A DNA stretch of 63,885 bases, filler included, from Craspedostauros australis (taxonomy: Eukaryota): the NCBI GenBank assembly GCA_030167865.1. It is 9 parts of 9 records of this genome, joined end to end, with 100 filler letters (N's around TTAATTAATTAA, not from the genome) between each part and the next. Parts side by side here need not be neighbours in the genome. Positions count along the whole stretch, not along the records: positions 1 to 17,771 come from JALAGF010002935.1; 8 more parts are not named here. One strand, given 5' to 3'. The position numbers and the translations under genes were made by a program. The notes beneath the pieces are model-generated. The model had not been told where the DNA came from, did no database searches, and was given only the letters and a program-made list of their open reading frames with translations. Positions within the stretch are counted from its first letter, which is position 1, and the number at the start of each line of letters is the position of its first letter. Below are positions 12,403 through 48,886 of the stretch, in pieces.

Positions 12403-15240
12403 ATGACCAAGCTTAAGACAACCATCACCAACGTTCTCCTCCTTGCCATCTTGGTGACGGCCGAAGCGCGCCTCCGAGGAGACAAGAACACGGACTCAGT
12501 CGAGCTGTTGCACATGGCGATGCAAGCCACCCGTATGCTTAAGGCTGGTGTTGGGATCGATGGCGATGGTGAAACGAAGAATATCAAGACGAATAAGACT
12601 GGCGTCTTCAATCCGATCGATCCTCCCACTTCGAAGCCGTCCGCATCTCCAACTTCGATTCCAACCTCCCGGCCGGCCTCATCGCCCACGGTTCTGCCAA
12701 CTGCAACTCCATCAGCTTCTCCAACCGGCTTCGATTCTACCATCTTGGTCAACTGCCTTCCCGACGGTACCACCGCCCTCACACTAGATGAAGCTCGCGC
12801 CAAGACTATCATCTGCAATGCCACCAAGGAATCATGCCGCAAGGCTGTGACTGCCGTCAAAGCATCCAGTCAATTGCGGAACTTCTTTGGATGCGCGGGA
12901 GATCTGGGCGAAGCAGCAGCACGCAAGCTCTTCAATCGATACGCAACGAACGCAGAGCTTGCTGAGCAACTCAGGATGGTCGCTGATGCTGGAATGACCC
13001 TCGTCACTGAACGACCGGACGTGATGAAGGCCGCTTGCATGGCCATCGCACAAGCTCAAACGCTGCCCAATGTCAATCCATGCTGCCAAGGAGCATCAGG
13101 ATGCACGTCAGCAACTGCTTCTGCTTCCACCTACCCACAATTCATGACCGTTGCCGTCGATGCATGTGTGGGAGACTATGCATGCAAGGACATGGGCCCC
13201 AACCCCCTCATCCTCGATTCATCCTGCACTGGCGCAAGTGCATGCGAGTTGATGAATGAGAACGAGGTCAACCCCTCCATCACTGGAGTCACCTTCGTCG
13301 GTGAGATGGCATGCACCACCTCTCAATCTTGTGAGGGAGTGGGACGTCGTTCTCATGGTGATGTCATCATCCAGACCGGCGCATGCATCGGATCAGACGC
13401 ATGCAATGCAGTTGGCCGTCGTGTGGAGCAATCAGCACCATCCTTTCGCTTCCGCAGCCACATCAACATCGGGGCGAATGCGTGCGTCGGCAGCAATGCC
13501 TGCAAGGACGCCCACTCTACTGTCGACCATGGTACTGCTGGCAAGCATGCAGGCAGCCTGACCATTGGTGACGGTGGCTGTGCTCGTGATGACTCATGCG
13601 AGAAGCTGGGTTTCACCGACAGGATGGAGACGGACATTATCATCTCTCCTGGTGCCTGCAGCGGTGCAAGCGGGTGCCGAGGGTGCATGACGAAGTCGGA
13701 GTGCAAGGTCGATGAAGTGTATCTCATCAGCGATGAAGATGGGGCGTGTCCAAAGGGAGGCACAGACACCAACAACAATCCGACAGGAGACAAGGTGGAT
13801 GAATTTTGTGTCAGCAAGGATACATTGCCCACAGATTGCCCTACGTTCTTCCCAACTCCTTTCCCAACGCTACCAGGGACGCCTTCTCCGACCCGCACGC
13901 CGTCCAGTATCCCAACCACATTGCCGTCCCAGTCTCCGTCTCAAACTCCATCCATTCTACCCTCAGACCAACCCTCTGATCTACCATCACATCGGCCATC
14001 GGATCTACCGTCCGAACCGCCATCCAATCAGCCCTCAGATCTGCCGTCCGAACCGCCATCCAATCATCCCTCAGATCTGCCGTCCGATCTACCATCTGCG
14101 ATCCCCTCGGAGGATCCGTCTGATCTACCGTCGGACATTCCAAGTTTAGTGCCTTCCCGCTCTCAAGCTCCCAGCGAGTCCATGGCTCCATCTCTCCCTC
14201 CAGCTTCGTTGGACGTTGGGTGCCTCGCAGATCCTGGAGTTGTGACATCGACCTTCAACCCGGTTTCTGGCCCACTCCTCTGCGACAGCGCTGTGGGCAC
14301 ATGTGCAAACTTCGTCGCTGCAGTCGACGCTTTCTCCGAGAACAGAGGGAGGATGATCAAGAGCATTTTCGCCTGCGACGATTCGGATCCAAACCCGCAA
14401 CCCGTGGCACAGGATGTGGCGCAGGCACGCTTCGACAAGATAAAGAACGACGCGAGTGTGACGGCGGCTCTCCTGAAAACATTGACGGACAACAAGAAGC
14501 TATACACTGCAAGCGCCGGGATCGTGACGACAGCATGCAATGGAAACTGCTGCACGCAGCCGGAAGCCTGCAAGACCAACCCTGCGTCCGGCGTGATGAC
14601 GGTGAGTGACGGATCCTGCATAGCAGACCATGCTTGCGAAGATGTATTCCCGGACATCATCATCCTTAGCAGCTGTGCAAGCCGGGTCTCCTGCTTTGGT
14701 ATCGGTGCATTCATGACTGACCAACCGAATGCTGCTGTCGACATCGGGTTCAGGGTGATTGGGCCGGCAACATGTCTTCGGAACGGAAGTTGCCAAAACT
14801 TCGGGACCAATATTTTCGGCAACATCCGAATCGAAGAAGGAGCATGCAACGGCGACTTCGCATGCTCAGACACTGGGATTCGCACAAGCCAAGGCGCTAC
14901 TACAGCGCCAAATGTGGCCAGCATTGTGGTCAGAAAGAATGCCTGTGAGGGAATGGACGCGTGCAAGTTTACCCACGGCGGATTCTCGAAAACCCAAGGA
15001 AGCTTGCTTATCGAAGAAGGCGCATGCCAAGGAGGGAATTCATGCGTCTTTCTTGGCTTAAACAATGATGCAATCAATGACATAGTGATCAAACAGGGAG
15101 TTTGTGATGTCAGCAAAGGTGAAACCTGCAAGGATTGCATCCGAGAAGAGGTGTGTGGTGGGGACACCGCACTGACATACACCATCGACAATGCAGGCGA
15201 GGATTGCGCTAGCCCGAATCCGCTCGCATGCGCGCCGTAG
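12403..15240 (+). CDS. Secreted Cys-rich repeat protein with Pro/Ser/Thr linkers (cell-surface/extracellular)
   Basis: Signal peptide ending AEA-RLRG. Two homologous Cys-rich regions built from GACxGxxAC repeats, separated by PT/PSDLPS tandem repeats. 945-aa single ORF. Confidence 0.8.
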   Translation: MTKLKTTITNVLLLAILVTAEARLRGDKNTDSVELLHMAMQATRMLKAGVGIDGDGETKNIKTNKTGVFNPIDPPTSKPSASPTSIPTSRPASSPTVLPTATPSASPTGFDSTILVNCLPDGTTALTLDEARAKTIICNATKESCRKAVTAVKASSQLRNFFGCAGDLGEAAARKLFNRYATNAELAEQLRMVADAGMTLVTERPDVMKAACMAIAQAQTLPNVNPCCQGASGCTSATASASTYPQFMTVAVDACVGDYACKDMGPNPLILDSSCTGASACELMNENEVNPSITGVTFVGEMACTTSQSCEGVGRRSHGDVIIQTGACIGSDACNAVGRRVEQSAPSFRFRSHINIGANACVGSNACKDAHSTVDHGTAGKHAGSLTIGDGGCARDDSCEKLGFTDRMETDIIISPGACSGASGCRGCMTKSECKVDEVYLISDEDGACPKGGTDTNNNPTGDKVDEFCVSKDTLPTDCPTFFPTPFPTLPGTPSPTRTPSSIPTTLPSQSPSQTPSILPSDQPSDLPSHRPSDLPSEPPSNQPSDLPSEPPSNHPSDLPSDLPSAIPSEDPSDLPSDIPSLVPSRSQAPSESMAPSLPPASLDVGCLADPGVVTSTFNPVSGPLLCDSAVGTCANFVAAVDAFSENRGRMIKSIFACDDSDPNPQPVAQDVAQARFDKIKNDASVTAALLKTLTDNKKLYTASAGIVTTACNGNCCTQPEACKTNPASGVMTVSDGSCIADHACEDVFPDIIILSSCASRVSCFGIGAFMTDQPNAAVDIGFRVIGPATCLRNGSCQNFGTNIFGNIRIEEGACNGDFACSDTGIRTSQGATTAPNVASIVVRKNACEGMDACKFTHGGFSKTQGSLLIEEGACQGGNSCVFLGLNNDAINDIVIKQGVCDVSKGETCKDCIREEVCGGDTALTYTIDNAGEDCASPNPLACAP
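13900..14160 (+). repeat. Coding tandem repeat (PSDL/PSEP/PSNQ tetrapeptides)
   Basis: 12-nt periodic repeats such as ccctcagatctgccgtccgaaccgccatccaat. Confidence 0.85.
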
Positions 15241-16279: not shown

Positions 16280-16624
16280 CTATTTGTCATCATCTTGTCT
16301 TGCGGAGCAGGGGTCACACGATGCATCTTCCTCTGTTGTGAATGCTTTTGCATGACGTGGAATCCGTTCCCTGTGACGTAGTGTCAAAATAGCGCGCTGC
16401 GGAATCGAACCACGGAGCCAGTCCACGCCCTGCATGAACACAAGAAATTAACGCTTATAACCCATGTCGCGACAACGTAGAAGACGGATCATAGAGGCCA
16501 AACACAAAATAACTCGAAATATCCAATCACCGTTGCTCCCAAAAGCAATCAAACCAGTGACAACAAGGGCCAAAAATCTACAACTAGTGCTATCGTGACC
16601 CCATTCTGCATTCTCTGCAGGTAG
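16280..16624 (-). mobile_element. Terminal fragment of the mariner-like DNA transposon family (related to 46022 onward), interrupted by a 93-bp insertion
   Basis: Reverse complement aligns with 46022-46270 and 19446-19670. It begins TA|CTACCTGCAGAGAATG versus TA|CTAGCTGCAGAGAATG at 46020. Confidence 0.75.
16382..16474. mobile_element. 93-bp TGTC...GACA insertion with a 6-bp TSD (solo-LTR/TRIM-like) carrying a Pol III B-box
   Basis: ACGTAG is duplicated at 16376-16381 and 16475-16480. The empty site is visible in the sister copies (CTACGTCACAGG near 19571 and 46167). GGTTCGATTCC on the minus strand at 16411-16401. Confidence 0.75.
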
Positions 16625-17771: not shown

Positions 17772-17871
17772 NNNNNNNNNNNNNNNNNNNNNNNNNNNNN
17801 NNNNNNNNNNNNNNNTTAATTAATTAANNNNNNNNNNNNNNNNNNNNNNNNNNNNNNNNNNNNNNNNNNNN
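17772..17871. other. Artificial 100-bp contig spacer (44N-TTAATTAATTAA-44N); also at 20248, 21655, 45629, 48887, 55321, 60391 and 62286
   Basis: Eight identical spacers. TTAATTAATTAA gives stop codons in all six frames. Confidence 0.97.
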
Positions 17872-19023
17872 CAACAGCTGTTTTTGACTCTTGTCCACAT
17901 CGTATCGCGTACCGTGCTTCCTGACGTGATGTTTCACTTTCCAGTCAGCCAGTTTCGTCGTGCGATTGTTACCATACACACGCGTGATCCAGTCATCGAT
18001 ATACCAATTGTCAAATTCGATCGGATAGTAATAACCGAAGATGTCCAGATGGCTTCGATGGACCATATCGTGTGTCAGAATAGTCACCTTCCCTTGCTTG
18101 CAGGTGGGGCCGACCACACCGATGTTCGGGGGACTGTAGCTCATGAGTCTATCGACACCCTTCGTAGCCCAGTTCTGAGTTTTGAATTCGGAGTCATCGT
18201 TGATACGCACGATGTAGTCAGCGCCATGCTCGTAGGCGGCTCTGCACATTTCGTTCATTGGGATATGATGTTCTTTGGTTTTGGTGATGCTGATGAAGTT
18301 GAGTGTGAACGGCGTCGAATCATCGATCTGCCGACGATGCTGATCGTCTTCCCAGAAGGCATCGCCCACATCGAATGCGATGAGAAGCTCGAAGTTAAAG
18401 CTGGCTCGGTCTTGTTGCGTGACGGTTTTCTCCAAGGATGGGAGGAGAAGATTGCGCAATGTGGTTTCGTTGACACTCTGCCAGTTCGGCAAGGATCTGG
18501 TGCACGACGTGATCATTATCAGCGGTTTGCCACGGGTGGATGCATTCGCACGAAGAGCCACCTTGGTTGTGCGTTCCACCTTTGGTGGTGCCTCTATTTG
18601 ATGAGCAGCAGAGTTCGAATGCTCAGCAGCATTCCTATTCGCATTCCCAATTTCAACAGCACTCTGCGTGTTATCATCTCCGCTTTGCTGCTGCTCCTGC
18701 TGTTCCTCGGAGCCTGTGCCCTCCGAAGGGATGATCCCATCATGCGTGTGATCCAAATCGCTCAAGAAGGAGACGATGGGCATCACATCCAAGACGGACT
18801 GCGATTGCTGGCTGGTGGACCAGATGGAGATCATGGACAAAACCCCAACCATCGTGGCCATGTACAGCGCACGGTTATTCTTGGTTGATCGGCGATTTCC
18901 TCGCCAAGCTTTCTGGTCCTTTTGCTTCCGCCTGGTGGAGGCAGTCTGCGATGTCTTCTTCCCTTTGGTCTTCGTGACGGCAGATGCCGAACCATACTTC
19001 GGACTGTTGCTCTCGCCACCCAT
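17872..19023 (-). CDS. Type II membrane GT-A-fold glycosyltransferase-like protein, 5' part (runs into gap)
   Basis: Basic N-terminus, one TM segment (ALYMATMVGVLSMISIW) and a stem, then LIAFDVGD, ADYIVRINDDSEF (DxD-like), IGVVGP, THDMVHRSH, NWYIDDWITRVY. Confidence 0.75.
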
Positions 19024-19445
19024 CGTTTCAATCCTGCTCGGCCTGCTCTGACTCTTCTTGGTCCGTATGCTTCTTTTGTTCCTCTTGCCCTAATCCACTC
19101 TCATCTATTCTTATGACGCTCTTCTATCCTCCGAGTTCGATCTTGGTCCTCGGTCCTCGAGAAGTCAAGCGAGCAAAAAGGCACAATGACAACATATCCA
19201 TAATGATTTTGGTCCTAGTACGTGACTTGCGTCCCCACGCAAATTGGCGACTCAACGGGCTCGCTAAAAAACGTTTTTGTCCTCTTGCGCCGGCCATCTC
19301 GGCTCACGACATGAATCATATCTTAAATTAATAGAAATAGCCAGAGTTGCGGGAATTGTACCAATTTTTATTTCGCGCCTTGTGCGACGATCCTTGTTGT
19401 GTCACACCGTTGCCCTTTTTTGGTGCGACCTCCACCAAACCATAA

Positions 19446-19670
19446 ACTGGGTCACGATAACGCTAGTTGTAGAGTTTTGGCCCCTTGTTGCCACTGGTTT
19501 GCTTGCTTTTGGGAGAAACGGCGATTGTATATTTAGAGCTATTTCGTGTTTGCTCTCGCTGATCCGTCTTCTACGTCACAGGGAACGGATTCCACGTCAT
19601 GCAAAACGAGTCACAACAGAGGAAGAGGCATCGTGTGACTCTTCCTCCACAAGACAACGTGATGACTGTG
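19446..19670 (+). mobile_element. Subterminal fragment of the mariner-like family
   Basis: High similarity to 46045-46270 and to the reverse complement of 16280-16600 (gggtcacgata..ctagttgtagagttttggccccttgttgccactggtttgcttgcttttggga). Confidence 0.75.
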
Positions 19671-19856
19671 CGAAGCAACAACAGAATGCCAGCAAGGCAC
19701 GGGAAAAACGTTGAAAGTGGGTCTGGACGACGGACAGACTGCTCCGAACAGACATGTTCGGTTTGTCGCATCTGTGGGCTCCATCGAGTCAAGCACTGGA
19801 CGACAGAAGGTGGTCAATGGAACGTTAATACAACGTTATAAGCGATAACCTTGATT

Positions 19857-20000
19857 TTATTACATTCATTGAAACGCTATTACTTTCATTGAATCATTAT
19901 TACTTTCATTGAAACACTACTACTTTCATTGAAACGTTATTACTTTCATTGAATCGTGATTACTTTCATTGAATCGTGATTACTTTCATTGAAACGTCAT
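19857..20000. repeat. 20-bp minisatellite, about 7 copies (ttattactttcattgaaacg consensus)
   Basis: Head-to-tail units with no unique spacers. Confidence 0.9.
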
Positions 20001-20015
20001 CGTGACACTTCCATT

Positions 20016-20247
20016 AGAGAGGTTTCGCTTTCCACTCACCCAGTCACGACCAGTCCCACAAGGGAGTCATAACCTGATAGAGACACTTTCCCGGGGGGCG
20101 GCAAGAAATCACCCCCTCGCTGAGTGGAAATGATTTCCATTTCTGGCGCAGAAGTGGAAATCATTTCCACTCAGCGAGTCCTGGCAAAAGTGTCACTTCC
20201 ACATGGATAATAGACTTTGGCCAATCATGTTGTGTTATTTCGTTCTA
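20016..20247 (+). mobile_element. Left end of a MITE/DNA transposon related to 45024-45627, with a 63-nt internal hairpin
   Basis: Shares ccatt|AGAGAG...ctcacccagtcacgaccagtccc..gggagtcataacctgatagagacacttt and gagtcctggcaaaa with 45019-45215. Palindrome at 20116-20178. Confidence 0.75.
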
Positions 20248-20347
20248 NNNNNNNNNNNNNNNNNNNNNNNNNNNNNNNNNNNNNNNNNNNNTTAATTAAT
20301 TAANNNNNNNNNNNNNNNNNNNNNNNNNNNNNNNNNNNNNNNNNNNN

Positions 20348-21654
20348 AAGACGATCAGCATCGTCGGCAGATCGATGATTCGACGCCGTTCACACTCAAC
20401 TTCATCAGCATCACCAAAACCAAAGAACATCATATCCCAATGAACGAAATGTGCAGAGCCGCCTACGAGCATGGCGCTGACTACATCGTGCGTATCAACG
20501 ATGACTCCGAATTCAAAACTCAGAACTGGGCTACGAAGGGTGTCGATAGACTCATGAGCTACAGTCCCCCGAACATCGGTGTGGTCGGCCCCACCTGCAA
20601 GCAAGGGAAGGTGACTATTCTGACACACGATATGGTCCATCGAAGCCATCTGGACATCTTCGGTTATTACTATCCGATCGAATTTGACAATTGGTATATC
20701 GATGACTGGATCACGCGTGTGTATGGTAACAATCGCACGACGAAACTGGCTGACTGGAAAGTGAAACATCACGTCAGGAAGCACGGTACGCGATACGATG
20801 TGGACAAGAGTCAAAAACAGCTGTTGGGACAAACTGTGAAGCGTGGAAGACATCAACTGATGACGTACTTACAGCTTGGTGCTGTGATTGATCCCTTCAA
20901 GTACAGCGTTCTGGGCACGTCAAGGATAGGTATATCATCGGGTCCAATCCAACAGACGCACGAACGATTGCGGCAAGAGAACGGTTGGTCACCGGGCAAG
21001 CCGCTGNTNATNATCNCNNCNTGCACCAGATCCTTGNCAAACTGGCAGAGTGTCAACGAAACCACNTTGCACAANCTNCTCCTCCCATCCTTGGAGAAAA
21101 CNGTCACNCAANNNGANCGNGNNANNTTTAACTTCGAGCTNCTCATCGCATTCGATGTGGGCGATNCNTTCTGGGAAGACGATCAGCATCGTCGGCAGAT
21201 CGATGATTCGACGCCGTTCACACTCAACTTCATCAGCATCACCAAAACCAAAGAACATCATATCCCAATGAACGAAATGTGCAGAGCCGCCTACGAGCAT
21301 GGCGCTGACTACATCGTGCGTATCAACGATGACTCCGAATTCAAAACTCAGAACTGGGCTACGAAGGGTGTCGATAGACTCATGAGCTACAGTCCCCCGA
21401 ACATCGGTGTGGTCGGCCCCACCTGCAAGCAAGGGAAGGTGACTATTCTGACACACGATATGGTCCATCGAAGCCATCTGGACATCTTCGGTTATTACTA
21501 TCCGATCGAATTTGACAATTGGTATATCGATGACTGGATCACGCGTGTGTATGGTAACAATCGCACGACGAAACTGGCTGACTGGAAAGTGAAACATCAC
21601 GTCAGGAAGCACGGTACGCGATACGATGTGGACAAGAGTCAAAAACAGCTGTTG
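20348..21654 (+). CDS. Internal part of the same glycosyltransferase: two in-frame tandem GT domains (828-bp period)
   Basis: 20348-20826 = 21176-21654 = reverse complement of 17872-18350. The frame stays open across the linker. Both ends run into gaps. Confidence 0.7.
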
Positions 21655-21754
21655 NNNNNNNNNNNNNNNNNNNNNNNNNNNNNNNNNNNNNNNNNNNNTT
21701 AATTAATTAANNNNNNNNNNNNNNNNNNNNNNNNNNNNNNNNNNNNNNNNNNNN

Positions 21755-25659: not shown

Positions 25660-25732
25660 GCCTAATTAGCTCAGTCGGTAGAGCGCACGACTCTTAATCG
25701 TGTGGTCGAGGGTTCGATCCCCTCATTGGGTG
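25660..25732 (+). tRNA. tRNA-Lys (anticodon CTT)
   Basis: Acceptor GCCTAAT/ATTGGGT, D-arm GCTC..GAGC, anticodon arm CACGA-CTCTTAA-TCGTG, T-arm GAGGG-TTCGATC-CCCTC, followed by an oligo-T Pol III terminator. Confidence 0.97.
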
Positions 25733-26223
25733 CCTTTTTTGCTGCGCACAAACCTTCGGCATCCTATTTTGTCATGTGGATCGTGGCTCATTTTTGTTGG
25801 TCTTTTTGTTGTGCGAGATAAGATTGGATGACTTGGCCGACGCACCGCTCTCTCCTCTAAAGTTCATAGGTCGTACGAATACAACCATCACACTGAAGAG
25901 CAATGTGTGACACTCAGCAATAACATAATGTGGTACATATACTGGCGCTAACTGGAGTCCATCCTACCGTGATGTGAGCAGAACGCCCTCATCTCTTGAA
26001 GTATCCTATGCGACTCTGCTCTAAATACATCTGATGCATCAGTTTTCAAAGCACGCGCAATCAACATTCTACTTCAGGAGAGTATTGTCGCTTGCAACAG
26101 ATGCACCCAACAAATGCACATTCGTATGAACCGGCATTTTCTTATGTCTCAATACATCTCGGGGTGTCCGGCATTCCGATCAACCTGGGATCAACTTCAC
26201 ATCGACCTGACATCAACAGGCTG

Positions 26224-45933: not shown

Positions 45934-46021
45934 CTAGTCCACCACGGGGAACATCTGGCTGTCGTCTTGGTCCCTGCCTTCAGTATTGGGACTCCTGCAG
46001 CTGCTGCTGCTGCTGCTGTTA

Positions 46022-48886
46022 CTAGCTGCAGAGAATGTAAAATGGGGTCACGATAGCACTAGTTGTAGAGTTTTGGCCCCTTGTTGCCACTGGTTTGCTT
46101 GCTTTTGGGAGCAACGGCGATTATACATTTAGAGCTATTTCGTGTTGTTCCTCCCTGGTCCGTCTTCTACGTCACAGGACGGATTCGACGTCATGCGAAA
46201 CCAGTCACAACACAAGATGTGAGTGCGTCTCGCAGCACGTGGCCCTTGCTTCGCGACACAACGTGATGGCCAATCGCGCCGCAACACACGCGGACCGTTC
46301 CACGACGCAACGTGACGGCTTCGCGACACAACACACCGATCGTGTGGCGACGCGCACCAACCACGACACAAAAATTATGGTCCCCGTCACAAAAAAAACA
46401 CAACACATCACATCACAATCCTCCATGCCATCAAGCAAATGATGCGCACACCACCATTCGAACCACAGGTGTACCTCACACATATAATACTACTACTACT
46501 ACGATTTGCAGCTACACCTCTGCTGTGTTGGCATCCTGCTCTGCTTTGCTGTGATGCTCGGTCTTGCCAACGAACATGGCCACTTCGAATGTGTTCATGG
46601 TGGGTGCTGCTTCGGTCTTGCTCTTGTTGTTGTGAGGCCCACTAATCTCAGCTTTGCTCTTGCTGGGTGTCTTCTTCTTCTGGCCTTTTTTCTGTTGCTC
46701 AGCCTCCTCATTGGCTTTGGTGGTCGCAACGATTTGCTTCTCCAGCAATGGAATGAGGCTTCTGGTTGTTCGCAGGTTCGTTTTAAGGCACTGCAGTCCA
46801 CTGACAGCCATCACCTTGAGCGCATCATCGTACATACCTTCGATGTTGGGCTTGGCATATTTGAAGCCAGCTGATTTGTCTTTCTTGCCTGTTGCAGTTG
46901 GTTTCTTGGAAGCATTGTTGGTTGCCTCATCCTCCTCCTCCAACGTGAAGTCCGTGTGAGACACAGTAACGCCGATCTTGTTGCCGTCCTTGTCAGTTTC
47001 GGTGAATGTTTGCTTCCGCACGTTCATGCTCAGTCCCTTGCGCTCCGTCACAAATTCGTCACCTCCTTTCGCAGCACAAATTGCGTAGGCGATCTGATGG
47101 TGGCGAACATACGCGCGAGCTACCTTGTCCAGCCCAAATTGCTCCCAACAGGTTTTGCAAGCACCCCACAACGCATCAGTGGTGAACATGCGACTCCTGT
47201 TGTGCTTACCTTGATGCGCTGACACGTGTTTTGACATTGCTGGGAATATCGTATCGTCTTTCACGTTCGTGATGGGAGAATTCGATGGTTGAAATTGGAG
47301 GTGCCACCTGCGACTGTCGAACTCCTCGTTGATGAACCTGAGCAGTTCCATCTCTCTGTGTGGCCCTGCGCCATCCATCTGGTACCGAATCACCACGTTC
47401 TTGCCCGTTTTGGCCTTGATTTTGCTGGCAAGCGAATCCAGTGCTGGGAGTTCTTTTTCGCGGAAGAATTTCTTGAGGCTGTATTTTGGCTTGGGCTTAA
47501 CACGATGGCCATCTGTTTCCTTGCTGCCCATGATTTCCAGTGGTTGAAAGTACAGTTCACCCTTCTTGCAAGAGATTTTGTTCTTGTCAGGAAGGTGCTT
47601 GTACTTGGTTGGCGAGACCCAAGTTCGCTTGTATGTAGTCTTCTGCGCTCGAACCTTGCGCCCAACACGTTCGAAGCTGACCTTATACGCCTTTCCTCCT
47701 CGATCAAAGCGGTTGTCTGTTGGAGCGAACGCTGTTGATGCAATCACCATGGTCTTTTTGATGTGGCACTTGTGGTGCACAGCATGATTCACAGGCTTAA
47801 CCCCCATTTGGGGCACATGTTTGAGATTCTTCCAAGCAACAATAGAGTAGAACCACTTCTCATCCATGTGGACAACAACAACTTGTGTATTCTCAAGCTG
47901 CTCAGCTGCTTCCCAGAACACACAGAAGTCCTTGGCCCAGATCTCGCGCTTTGCCTTCGTGTCGCCCTTGATCTTGGGGAGTATTGTTGTAGAATGGTAT
48001 TTGCTGCCCTCCAATCCCATGACGTATGTTCGGATGGTGTCTTTGCAGACGCATTGGACGTTGCCGTTTCCTGCTAGTTCGCGTGCAACATCGTCCCACG
48101 AGATTGCGCCATTGCATCATTGCAACACATCCTGGAGCTCAACTTGCAGGAAGGGACCACGCTCCAACCACGAATCAGACAGGGATTTTGCGGATGCCAG
48201 CTCTTCAGGCGAAGCATGGTCAAAGGCATAAGAGATGTCCTCAGTCGTCAACCGTTGTCTGGGATGCTTAAGCCGCAGTTGCTTTGCGAAGATGGCACGC
48301 GGCGTGAAGCATTGCTGTTGCTTCTTGGAGCAGGTGAAGATGGTGCTGCCCGCATTGCTGCGCTTCTTCCATTCCAGGTTGTTCTGTTGGAATTTTTTGA
48401 TGTTGCGTTCGACAGTGCTAGTGCCAATATCCCATGCGTGGGCGATCAATTTCATGTTGGCTGGGATCCCACCCAAATTGAAATAGAGAACGATGTAGTT
48501 TTGGNTGTCTTGCTTATCAAGTTGTTTCTTTCTATTGGTGGGCTTAGTGTTGCTATGCCCTCCATCCTTTCGCAACCATCCTTTTGTTTTCGCGCCTTTC
48601 TTCATCTGCTTCGTGAGCTGGGCGATGGCTGCTGTCCTGTGCTCTCGTGCCAGCTCGAGAAAAGCAGCGATGTTGGCTTCTTGCGGTTCCGTGGTAGTTG
48701 GGGATGGTGTGGGGGGCTTAGCCTTGTTGTTGACACGCGCAGCAGCGACAGAGTGATGCTGGGGAGAAAGGAGGGAAGGCTGAGCAAGGCCACCAGCAGC
48801 GCGAGTCCGTGCGAAGGTAGCGAGGCTGTGTGGTGCGCACAGATCCTCACGAACGATGTACATGTGCCCTCTGGACATCACTGGGG
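46022..48886 (-). mobile_element. Tc1/mariner (plant-mariner/DD39D-like) DNA transposon; the other end is lost in the gap
   Basis: TA followed by terminus CTAGCTGCAGAGAATG shared with the copy ending at 16624; internal transposase gene. Confidence 0.8.
46512..48881 (-). pseudogene. Mariner-like DDD transposase with one in-frame TGA at 48119-48117
   Basis: HMDEKWFY, YQMDGAGPH and QPSNSPITNVKD catalytic motifs. ORFs 48117-48881 and 46512-48020 are in the same frame, separated only by DVLQ*CNG. Confidence 0.85.

Follow-up and report, generated by a model that had tools for sequence, protein, structure and literature searches.

The window analysed here is the whole stretch of 63,885 nt of Craspedostauros australis DNA, of which the first 17,771 positions are contig C2935. 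The best matches among solved structures for the plastid PsaB of this genome are 6LY5, 6L4U, 8XLS and 8ZEH, photosystem I entries of diatoms. The window contains a 93-bp insert between two copies of the hexamer ACGTAG (Table 1), and reading of the sequence confirmed both the insert and its 6-bp duplication as they had been given in the first-pass annotation. The insert lies in a dispersed host repeat, and the empty site that had been proposed is indeed found in two sister repeats, each of them lacking the insert and holding the target hexamer once. The orientation of the insert was set by the full copies of its family, in which the PPT comes before the LTR and a PBS starting with TGG comes after it. 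On the minus strand, as also described before, an exact B-box, GGTTCGATTCC (16401-16411), is followed by GCAGCGCGCTA and then by TTTT. The TGTC/GACA ends hold for the window copy and not for the family, in which AACA is the end in 12 of the 13 full copies (readable U5); the 4-bp symmetry is a peculiarity of the window copy's variant, and the terminal inverted repeat is only 3-4 bp. The absence of a convincing A-box, judged by the A-box consensus and its spacing to the B-box, stands in part: an A-box-like word, TGGCTCCGTGG, does exist, but it shares GG with the B-box and therefore cannot partner that B-box. No tRNA was found at the insert by ARAGORN at default settings, and the calls made at a lowered threshold were set aside for their spurious long introns.

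Table 1. Insert, target site and sister repeats, in positions of the window
Feature	Position	Strand	Remark
Dispersed host repeat, the insertion target	16286..16601		Outside the element
Left TSD copy ACGTAG	16376..16381	+	Single copy at the empty sites 19571-19576 and 46167-46172
Solo LTR, 93 bp, TRIM family A	16382..16474	-	Element sense is the minus strand
Putative U5	16382..16389	-	T4 tract directly after A73, then CA end
tRNA top-half mimic, 40 nt	16390..16429	-	Acceptor stem, short linker, T-arm, discriminator A73
Acceptor 3′ strand and A73 (CGCGCT-A)	16390..16396	-	
B-box / T-loop GGTTCGATTCC	16401..16411	-	Read from the sequence
A-box-like word TGGCTCCGTGG	16410..16420	-	Overlaps the B-box
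Acceptor 5′ strand GGCGTG	16424..16429	-	
TATA-like word	16455..16459	-	30 nt upstream of mimic position 1
Right TSD copy ACGTAG	16475..16480	+	
Sister host repeat with empty site	19449..19666	-	88%
Second sister host repeat with empty site	46019..46212	-	87%

Elsewhere in the window, an ordinary tRNA-Lys(CTT) gene with a T6 trailer lies at 25660-25734 (+), and an ORF of 945 aa at 12403-15240 (+) is rich in cysteine, has a probable signal peptide and contains a PSD/PSE repeat tract, similar ORFs being present in loci L061 and L159. One ORF recurs between N-runs at positions 17772-21754 in near-identical copies, both inverted and direct, which may be an assembly artefact, and a 20-bp AT-rich tandem repeat in seven copies spans 19837-20015.

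The 93-mer has at least 34 matches in the genome, 26 of which form 13 pairs spaced 264-276 bp apart, with 8 singles, and this is more than chance would give. These are the paired copies around a PBS- and PPT-bearing interior that a BLASTN-type check was expected to find, and they define family A, with 13 full copies of 357-359 bp, 93-bp LTRs and a non-coding interior of 171-173 bp that is too short for an RT. On the element strand, the order is LTR, PBS starting with TGG, interior, purine tract (a run ending GGGAGGG) and LTR. A perfect 6-bp TSD, different at each locus as had been anticipated, flanks all 13 full copies and 2 of the 7 solos, the window copy included; five diverged solos have imperfect TSDs, four of them at one common site in a duplicated host region. 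Both LTRs are readable in 10 of the 13 full copies and differ at no position in six, at one in three and at two in one, which indicates recent movement of the family. Direct terminal repeats, a PBS, a PPT, a length below 1 kb, a non-coding interior and a locus-specific TSD together mark family A as a TRIM, and the B-box is kept in nearly all of its copies. LTR-LTR recombination of this non-coding TRIM left the window insert as a solo LTR, which bears out the initial view of it as the solo LTR of a miniature LTR retroelement; it may otherwise be the assembly collapse of a full element, against which it carries a variant base absent from all full copies.

Two family A copies lie inside Copia LTRs (L016/L026 and L024/L025). 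Changes from TA to CA or from TA to TG are frequent in older LTR copies (L027-L029, L039, L040, L031, L038 and window position 16385), where the distinct change sites, small in number, comprise 7 in 13 TA dinucleotides versus 4 at 14 CpG and 15 elsewhere. A box in LTR-A complementary to the iMet anticodon arm was dropped as a candidate: it pairs at 10/10 positions in one old copy and at 9/10 in young copies, its perfect match stems from the TA-to-TG change in old copies, and it is absent from the other families.

The B-box of family A belongs to a larger structure, the mimic, whose positions are numbered as in a tRNA from the 3′ end. It consists of a 6-bp acceptor stem GGCGTG/CGCGCT (6/6 pairs), an 8-nt linker, a T-arm with a TTCGATT loop, A73 and a T4 tract, while the D arm and the anticodon arm are absent; fold prediction gave P = 0.88 for the acceptor stem and P = 0.38 for the T-stem. 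This layout is common to seven families (A-F and X), of which A, B and X are in this genome. Family B (97-bp LTR, 364 bp) comprises two intact copies, one chimera, three solo sites and one decayed copy (L036, L037, L031-L035 and L038, on C4945, C6484 and others), and all that it has in common with A is an interior motif and the T-arm region. The acceptor stem of B is AAGGTG/CACCTT, its mimic lacks a T4 after A73, and its PBS, TGGTAAGGT, makes a 9-nt match to its own end. Two imperfect family B TSDs show one A/G change each, and the decayed copy (L061, on C4403) continues after A73 directly into about 190 bp of other sequence and lacks the 3′ LTR beyond its first bases. The interior motif, 27 nt long with a TATAAA-like core and possibly a packaging or dimer signal, occurs in A and B and nowhere else in the genome, all 13 matches of the search being A, B or one decayed B; a genome search for a B-box plus PBS pattern likewise returned A or B in 16 of 16 matches and no further family.

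Family X (165-166-bp LTR, 685 bp, 6-bp TSD) was found through an 18-nt PPT junction common to A and X, so that the B-box was not in the query, and shows 9 junctions among 25 matches (L189:1339-2023, L169, L170 and L171). It has an AACGTG/CACGTT stem, a 12-bp acceptor/T helix, A73, CTTTT and a PBS, TGGTAACGT, with a 9-nt match to its own mimic; the loop of its T-like arm, AGCGTTA, is not a B-box. The start of the family X LTR has 13 of 14 bases in common with one Copia LTR type.

The remaining families came from metagenomes, in which a pattern of a B-box, TA at 72-73, a gap and ACATGGTA, itself fixing five pairs, gave 70 loci. Candidates were first picked by pair count and direct repeats were then checked in 25 of the 70 loci, and they are present in 10, while the LTR of L087 recurs in 3 more and 12 have none; LTR elements of the same build make up 13 of the 70 loci and fall into families C, C′, D, E and F. 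The run of pairs between own mimic and PBS reaches at least 8 (8-14) in 11 of these 13, and at most 7 in the other 57 loci, among which L090, L092 and L121, with a repeated 20-mer, are counted. The two LTR-type loci below 8 are D copies (a changed base in the 5′ mimic; a duplicated PBS start), and the PBS of one D copy forms a run of 15 with the mimic of the other. The TSD is 5 bp in C and C′ and 6 bp in A, B and X. C and C′ (L097, L063) contain a longer tRNA-like interior stretch with A-box-like and B-box words. The family F copies L087 and L106 lie in or beside similar ORFs, and L106 is cut after 8 PBS bases; it was rejected as an autonomous F element, its ORF having no Pfam match and resembling the ORF interrupted in L087. 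Viral contigs gave 4 matches, none with LTR anatomy in the inspected context.

Across the seven families, all 42 of 42 acceptor positions are paired. Folded alone, the mimic forms the acceptor stem with P = 0.84-0.96 in 8 of 9 sequences, the ninth being the D copy with the changed base, and the T-stem of mimic E is not predicted at all. CCA is encoded in none of 8 mimics, yet every PBS starts with TGG, in register with A73 plus CCA. An exact B-box is present in the LTRs of families A-F, a second one lies in the family A interior, 66 nt from mimic position 1, and TATAA is found at -28 to -30 in A, D and E and is weaker or absent in B, C, F and X. The stretch from the PBS to the next mimic is free of T4 in A and B and has one T4 each in C and X; a T4 trailer is usual for tRNA genes here, being present in 8 of 14 sampled from the host. 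The T4 after A73, the TATA-like word and the second, interior B-box make an involvement of Pol III with the LTR plausible. Part of the element is present in one sequencing run as contigs, a form in which RNA ends do not show. The first-pass annotation had gone further and treated the LTR B-box as simply a captured promoter, which does not hold as the main reading: an A-box at a workable distance is missing, the B-box is part of a conserved fold, a tRNA top half with a 3′ end that matches the PBS, and family X keeps both the fold and the PBS match though it has no LTR B-box. The TRIMs Cassandra and Ajax carry in their LTRs the remnant of a Pol III small-RNA gene, derived from 5S, and the Ajax PBS corresponds to host tRNA-Leu, according to the accessible part of one source (PMC10886601). 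Unlike in Cassandra and Ajax, no 5S rRNA match was obtained here with Rfam in 7 loci up to E = 1.

The mimic 3′ end with an added CCA was shown to be complementary to the element's own PBS and to change in step with it across the families. In family A, the two form 8 Watson-Crick pairs, or 10 with one G-U, and the Watson-Crick runs are 8 in A, 9 in B, 14 in C, 15 in D, 8 in E, 9 in F and 9 in X. Only 6 of 5040 family permutations score as high as the own-family match, a figure that is not a probability because the seven families are related. PBS nucleotides 6-9 alone, fixed by no search pattern, form 26 of 28 pairs, and again 6 of 5040 permutations are as high. Since the families are related and E, F and X have mostly the same strand, the evidence amounts to some four independent changes. 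In the families with a G-U at position 71 or 72 of the acceptor stem (A, C, D, E and F), the PBS carries the Watson-Crick A in 5 of 5 cases.

A 450-bp head-to-head chimera of A and B (L001, 1144-1593), integrated as a single unit, has one 6-bp TSD and a U3 end at both sides. At its junction, LTR-A and TGG are followed by an antisense B element with a 3′ LTR that ends precisely at position 73; read in the B sense, CCA occupies positions 74-76, where U5 is expected. This fits the product expected if a CCA-tailed B RNA had primed at PBS-A and had then been copied. Counted over the six bases adjoining TGG, there are 2 differences from mimic B, 2 from mimic A and 1 from PBS-A, and as the junction is closest to PBS-A, a template switch at shared bases would fit too. 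The mismatch does not decide the matter, because the PBS of Ty1 and Ty3 does not inherit the sequence of the primer, as stated in the available portion of PMC5371799.

Since the mimic fits the element's own PBS, the element may make its own primer and not borrow that of the host. The minus-strand primer of LTR retroelements is generally taken to come from the pool of host tRNAs, Tf1 being the known exception. We put at roughly 55% the probability that the LTR encodes its own CCA-tailed primer, and the broader proposal, a diatom lineage of mini-LTR-elements with its own primer gene giving a 40-50-nt top-half RNA that is host-trimmed, CCA-tailed and annealed to the PBS, would deserve about even odds. 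The LTR would then act as a mini-tRNA gene, transcribed, probably by Pol III, from near mimic position 1, a start that lies about 30 nt upstream of the matching strand and to which the TATA-like word would point. The RNA would end, or be trimmed, at A73 and be tailed by the host CCA-adding enzyme, after which it would anneal to the PBS and prime minus-strand synthesis; the equally processed 3′ end of the full-length RNA could serve as an alternative primer. In the full-length RNA, the 5′ mimic copy would pair in cis with the PBS and so be unfolded there, which could spare the genome RNA from cutting. RNase Z and the CCA-adding enzyme recognise the 12-bp acceptor/T helix, and because they read such a helix, A73, the helix and the missing CCA would fit the processing of a mini-tRNA. 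A mini-tRNA gene with a trimmed and CCA-tailed RNA, processing steps that we infer, would be the simplest account of all these features. A comparable RNA is mascRNA/menRNA (RF01684), which is processed by RNase P, RNase Z and the CCA-adding enzyme and is, like the mimic, short, with an acceptor stem and T-arm and the other arms reduced. It is the best Rfam match of family C, over the mimic, although at 24 bits against a threshold of 42.5 (E 0.35) this lies far below the threshold, and mascRNA derives from vertebrate lncRNAs and is not known to be a primer. At gathering level, Rfam gave no match in a full family A copy.

Because the LTR-PBS pairing also forms in cis, it could be kept for the RNA fold alone. 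On this basis a host tRNA could prime, with the LTR-PBS match serving a cis RNA switch in which the 5′ LTR folds back on the PBS and hides or presents it, and with the tRNA-like fold serving transcription or 3′-end formation; we consider this unlikely. The predicted leader fold is dominated by pairing in cis between the mimic 3′ strand and the PBS in 5 of 8 sequences (A, B, C, E and X, P = 0.85-1.0), and all PBSs start with TGG, as a host primer would have it. Against a cis role, this pairing is weak in F (0.02), C′ (0.39) and D (0.49), and the bases after A73 are not tuned to pair in cis with TGG, A74 being present in 4 of 8 sequences. Host tRNAs do fit E (Arg-TCG, 10 nt), F (Gly-TCC, bulged) and A, in which nuclear iMet, present in three copies, makes 7 consecutive pairs with PBS-A, and PBSs that are short and bipartite are known from Ty1 and Ty3, by the part of PMC5371799 at hand. 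In B and C, by contrast, the best sampled nuclear tRNA makes 6 consecutive pairs and would have to open a cis helix of 9-14 bp.

The host sample behind these comparisons comprised 14 nuclear tRNA 3′ ends (63 of 1301 candidates scored) of this diatom, which is the wrong organism for the metagenome families C-F. The best sampled nuclear tRNA makes 6 consecutive pairs with family C and 6 with family B, as against 9 for the B mimic itself, and no host tRNA fits family B beyond 7 nt. Genome-wide, no nuclear tRNA gene ends in CGCTA after the T-loop, the one tRNA match being the plastid Met tRNA, and none ends in CCTTA or, allowing wobble, in RYYTTR; the non-element matches to CCTTA (10, with 6 loci inspected that stand for all but repeats of one sequence) and to RYYTTR (3) are not tRNAs. 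An iMet-like match at C4466 was rejected as a primer, since it is not a tRNA gene. Duplex energies, anchored at CCA:TGG over 18 PBS bases, were compared between the own mimic and the best of the 14 sampled nuclear tRNAs, and were, in kcal/mol (own/host), -17.0/-13.7 (iMet) for A, -21.0/-18.7 for B, -18.9/-9.7 for X, -20.1/-8.0 for C, -27.9/-14.8 for D, -16.5/-21.7 (Arg-TCG) for E and -20.9/-26.0 (Gly-TCC, 2-nt bulge) for F. These 18-nt energies therefore favour self in five families (A, B, X, C and D) and a host tRNA in two (E and F); family B gains only 2.3 kcal/mol over its best bulged duplex with a host tRNA, and over 18 nt mimics A, X and F fit PBS-A equally well. A T-arm-like hairpin follows the PBS in A, B, D, E and F, and its 5′ strand is complementary to any similar T-stem, which may in part be why E and F match host tRNAs; the match may also record descent from Arg-TCG or Gly-TCC.

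Descent is central to another explanation, somewhat less probable still, in which a Pol III promoter was captured into the LTR, the primer is a host tRNA and the PBS match is inherited from a common tRNA ancestor (Arg-TCG, Gly-TCC or iMet). Its model is Helenus/TRIMp3, a TRIM of 311-1263 bp that is non-coding, has a tRNA-like sequence in both LTRs and is known from fungi, animals and Selaginella (Kojima 2024, PMC10886601). In the accessible part of that paper, Helenus has conserved A and B boxes, PBSs matching host tRNAs and a TSD of 4 bp in animals and 5 bp in fungi and plants; Kojima looked there for LTR tRNA-PBS complementarity and found it absent. The very existence of such elements (PMC10886601) favours this explanation, as do the exact B-box in the LTRs of A-F with the TATA-like word at -28 to -30 in A, D and E, the T4 after A73, the T4-free stretch that follows the PBS up to the next mimic in A and B, the presence of TGGTAACG in D, E, F, X and the complement of Arg(TCG), and the resemblance of the 3′ end and trailer of mimic X to the Gly(TCC) gene minus two bases. 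The elements described here share with Helenus the PBS, PPT, solo LTRs, several families per genome and a tRNA-like LTR sequence (PMC10886601, as far as it was available), which here consists of acceptor stem, T-arm, A73 and T4. Unlike Helenus, the mimics keep the tRNA top half only, the A-box-like word overlaps the B-box in A, X lacks an LTR B-box, and no A-box lies at a usable distance from the LTR B-box; the TSD is 6 bp in A, B and X, the host is a diatom, and the PBS matches the own mimic plus CCA in all 7 families. They work like a Helenus-type TRIM but fail three Helenus features, namely boxes, PBS and TSD, the conserved boxes and missing LTR-PBS complementarity reported by Kojima in the sections at hand (PMC10886601) being what is not found here. 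Shared ancestry, moreover, leaves unexplained the joint change of the PBS and both acceptor strands in A, B, C and D.

Very improbable is self-priming of the Tf1 type from the element's own LTR. Tf1 primes with the cleaved 5′ end of its mRNA, which has neither a tRNA fold nor a CCA, and none of the tRNA-like stem, T-arm and A73 is needed by that mechanism. Elements of this type, named tRNA-independent in the part of PMC5371799 available, resemble the present ones in that the PBS pairs with the element's own LTR sequence, and pairing in cis is predicted here as well. Unlike in Tf1, the PBS here begins with TGG and needs a CCA that is not encoded: in 8 of 8 sequences, nothing encoded pairs with its first three bases. 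What the PBS does match is the 3′ strand of a tRNA-like stem, of which the 5′ partner, the T-arm and A73 are all preserved. Finally, a miniature DNA transposon (MITE), or a pattern arisen by chance, can for practical purposes be discarded, for short size and TG..CA ends with 4-bp symmetry in the window copy alone are outweighed by 13 elements with direct terminal repeats, PBS, PPT and a 6-bp TSD each of their own, and by a terminal inverted repeat of merely 3-4 bp, so that the insert is not the end of a DNA transposon.

Whatever primes it, the TRIM is probably copied in trans by an autonomous retrotransposon, for which a Copia is the candidate. Copia elements are abundant in the genome (RVT_2 match, E 4e-41), with a similar PPT-LTR junction in 109 matches versus 29 in the control. 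Unlike family A, they are autonomous and have LTRs of about 570-800 bp, and diatom Copia (CoDi) elements are like family A in their TG..CA LTR ends, by the available part of PMC2806351, in which PBS data are not given. In locus L177 a Copia RNase H sequence is fused to the X interior at the PBS, and in L169 the X interior is joined to a Copia LTR at a contig end; these recombinants could be misassemblies, and they point to Copia as a candidate helper of X. As the 18-nt PPT junction is common to A and X, Copia is perhaps also the helper of A. No Copia 5′ LTR junction was found among the inspected loci, two complete stand-alone Copia LTRs have no TSD, and none of the 25 matches to ACATGGTAACG is a Copia junction.

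The suggestion that such an element was possibly undescribed in diatoms needs narrowing: TRIMs with tRNA-derived LTRs are known as Helenus, and those in the accessible part of that source are not from diatoms (PMC10886601), nor does a diatom term occur in the portion of its supplement available. A 2026 sugar beet paper, in the part at hand, cites Helenus without addition on this point (PMC13570524). No report of a self-encoded tRNA-like primer was found in open-licence PMC papers or bioRxiv, Helenus being the nearest. What the sequences present here is a set of tRNA-bearing TRIMs in a diatom with an unusual, conserved LTR-PBS fold.

If the self-encoded primer is true, it would add a priming route to those by whole host tRNA, by half tRNA and by self-cleavage of the Tf1 type, and the parasite would no longer depend on its helper's choice of primer. 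It would explain how non-autonomous elements can change their helper or PBS, and it would link retroelement priming to tRNA-like 3′ tags. The primer idea aside, their recent activity makes these TRIMs matter as insertion markers.
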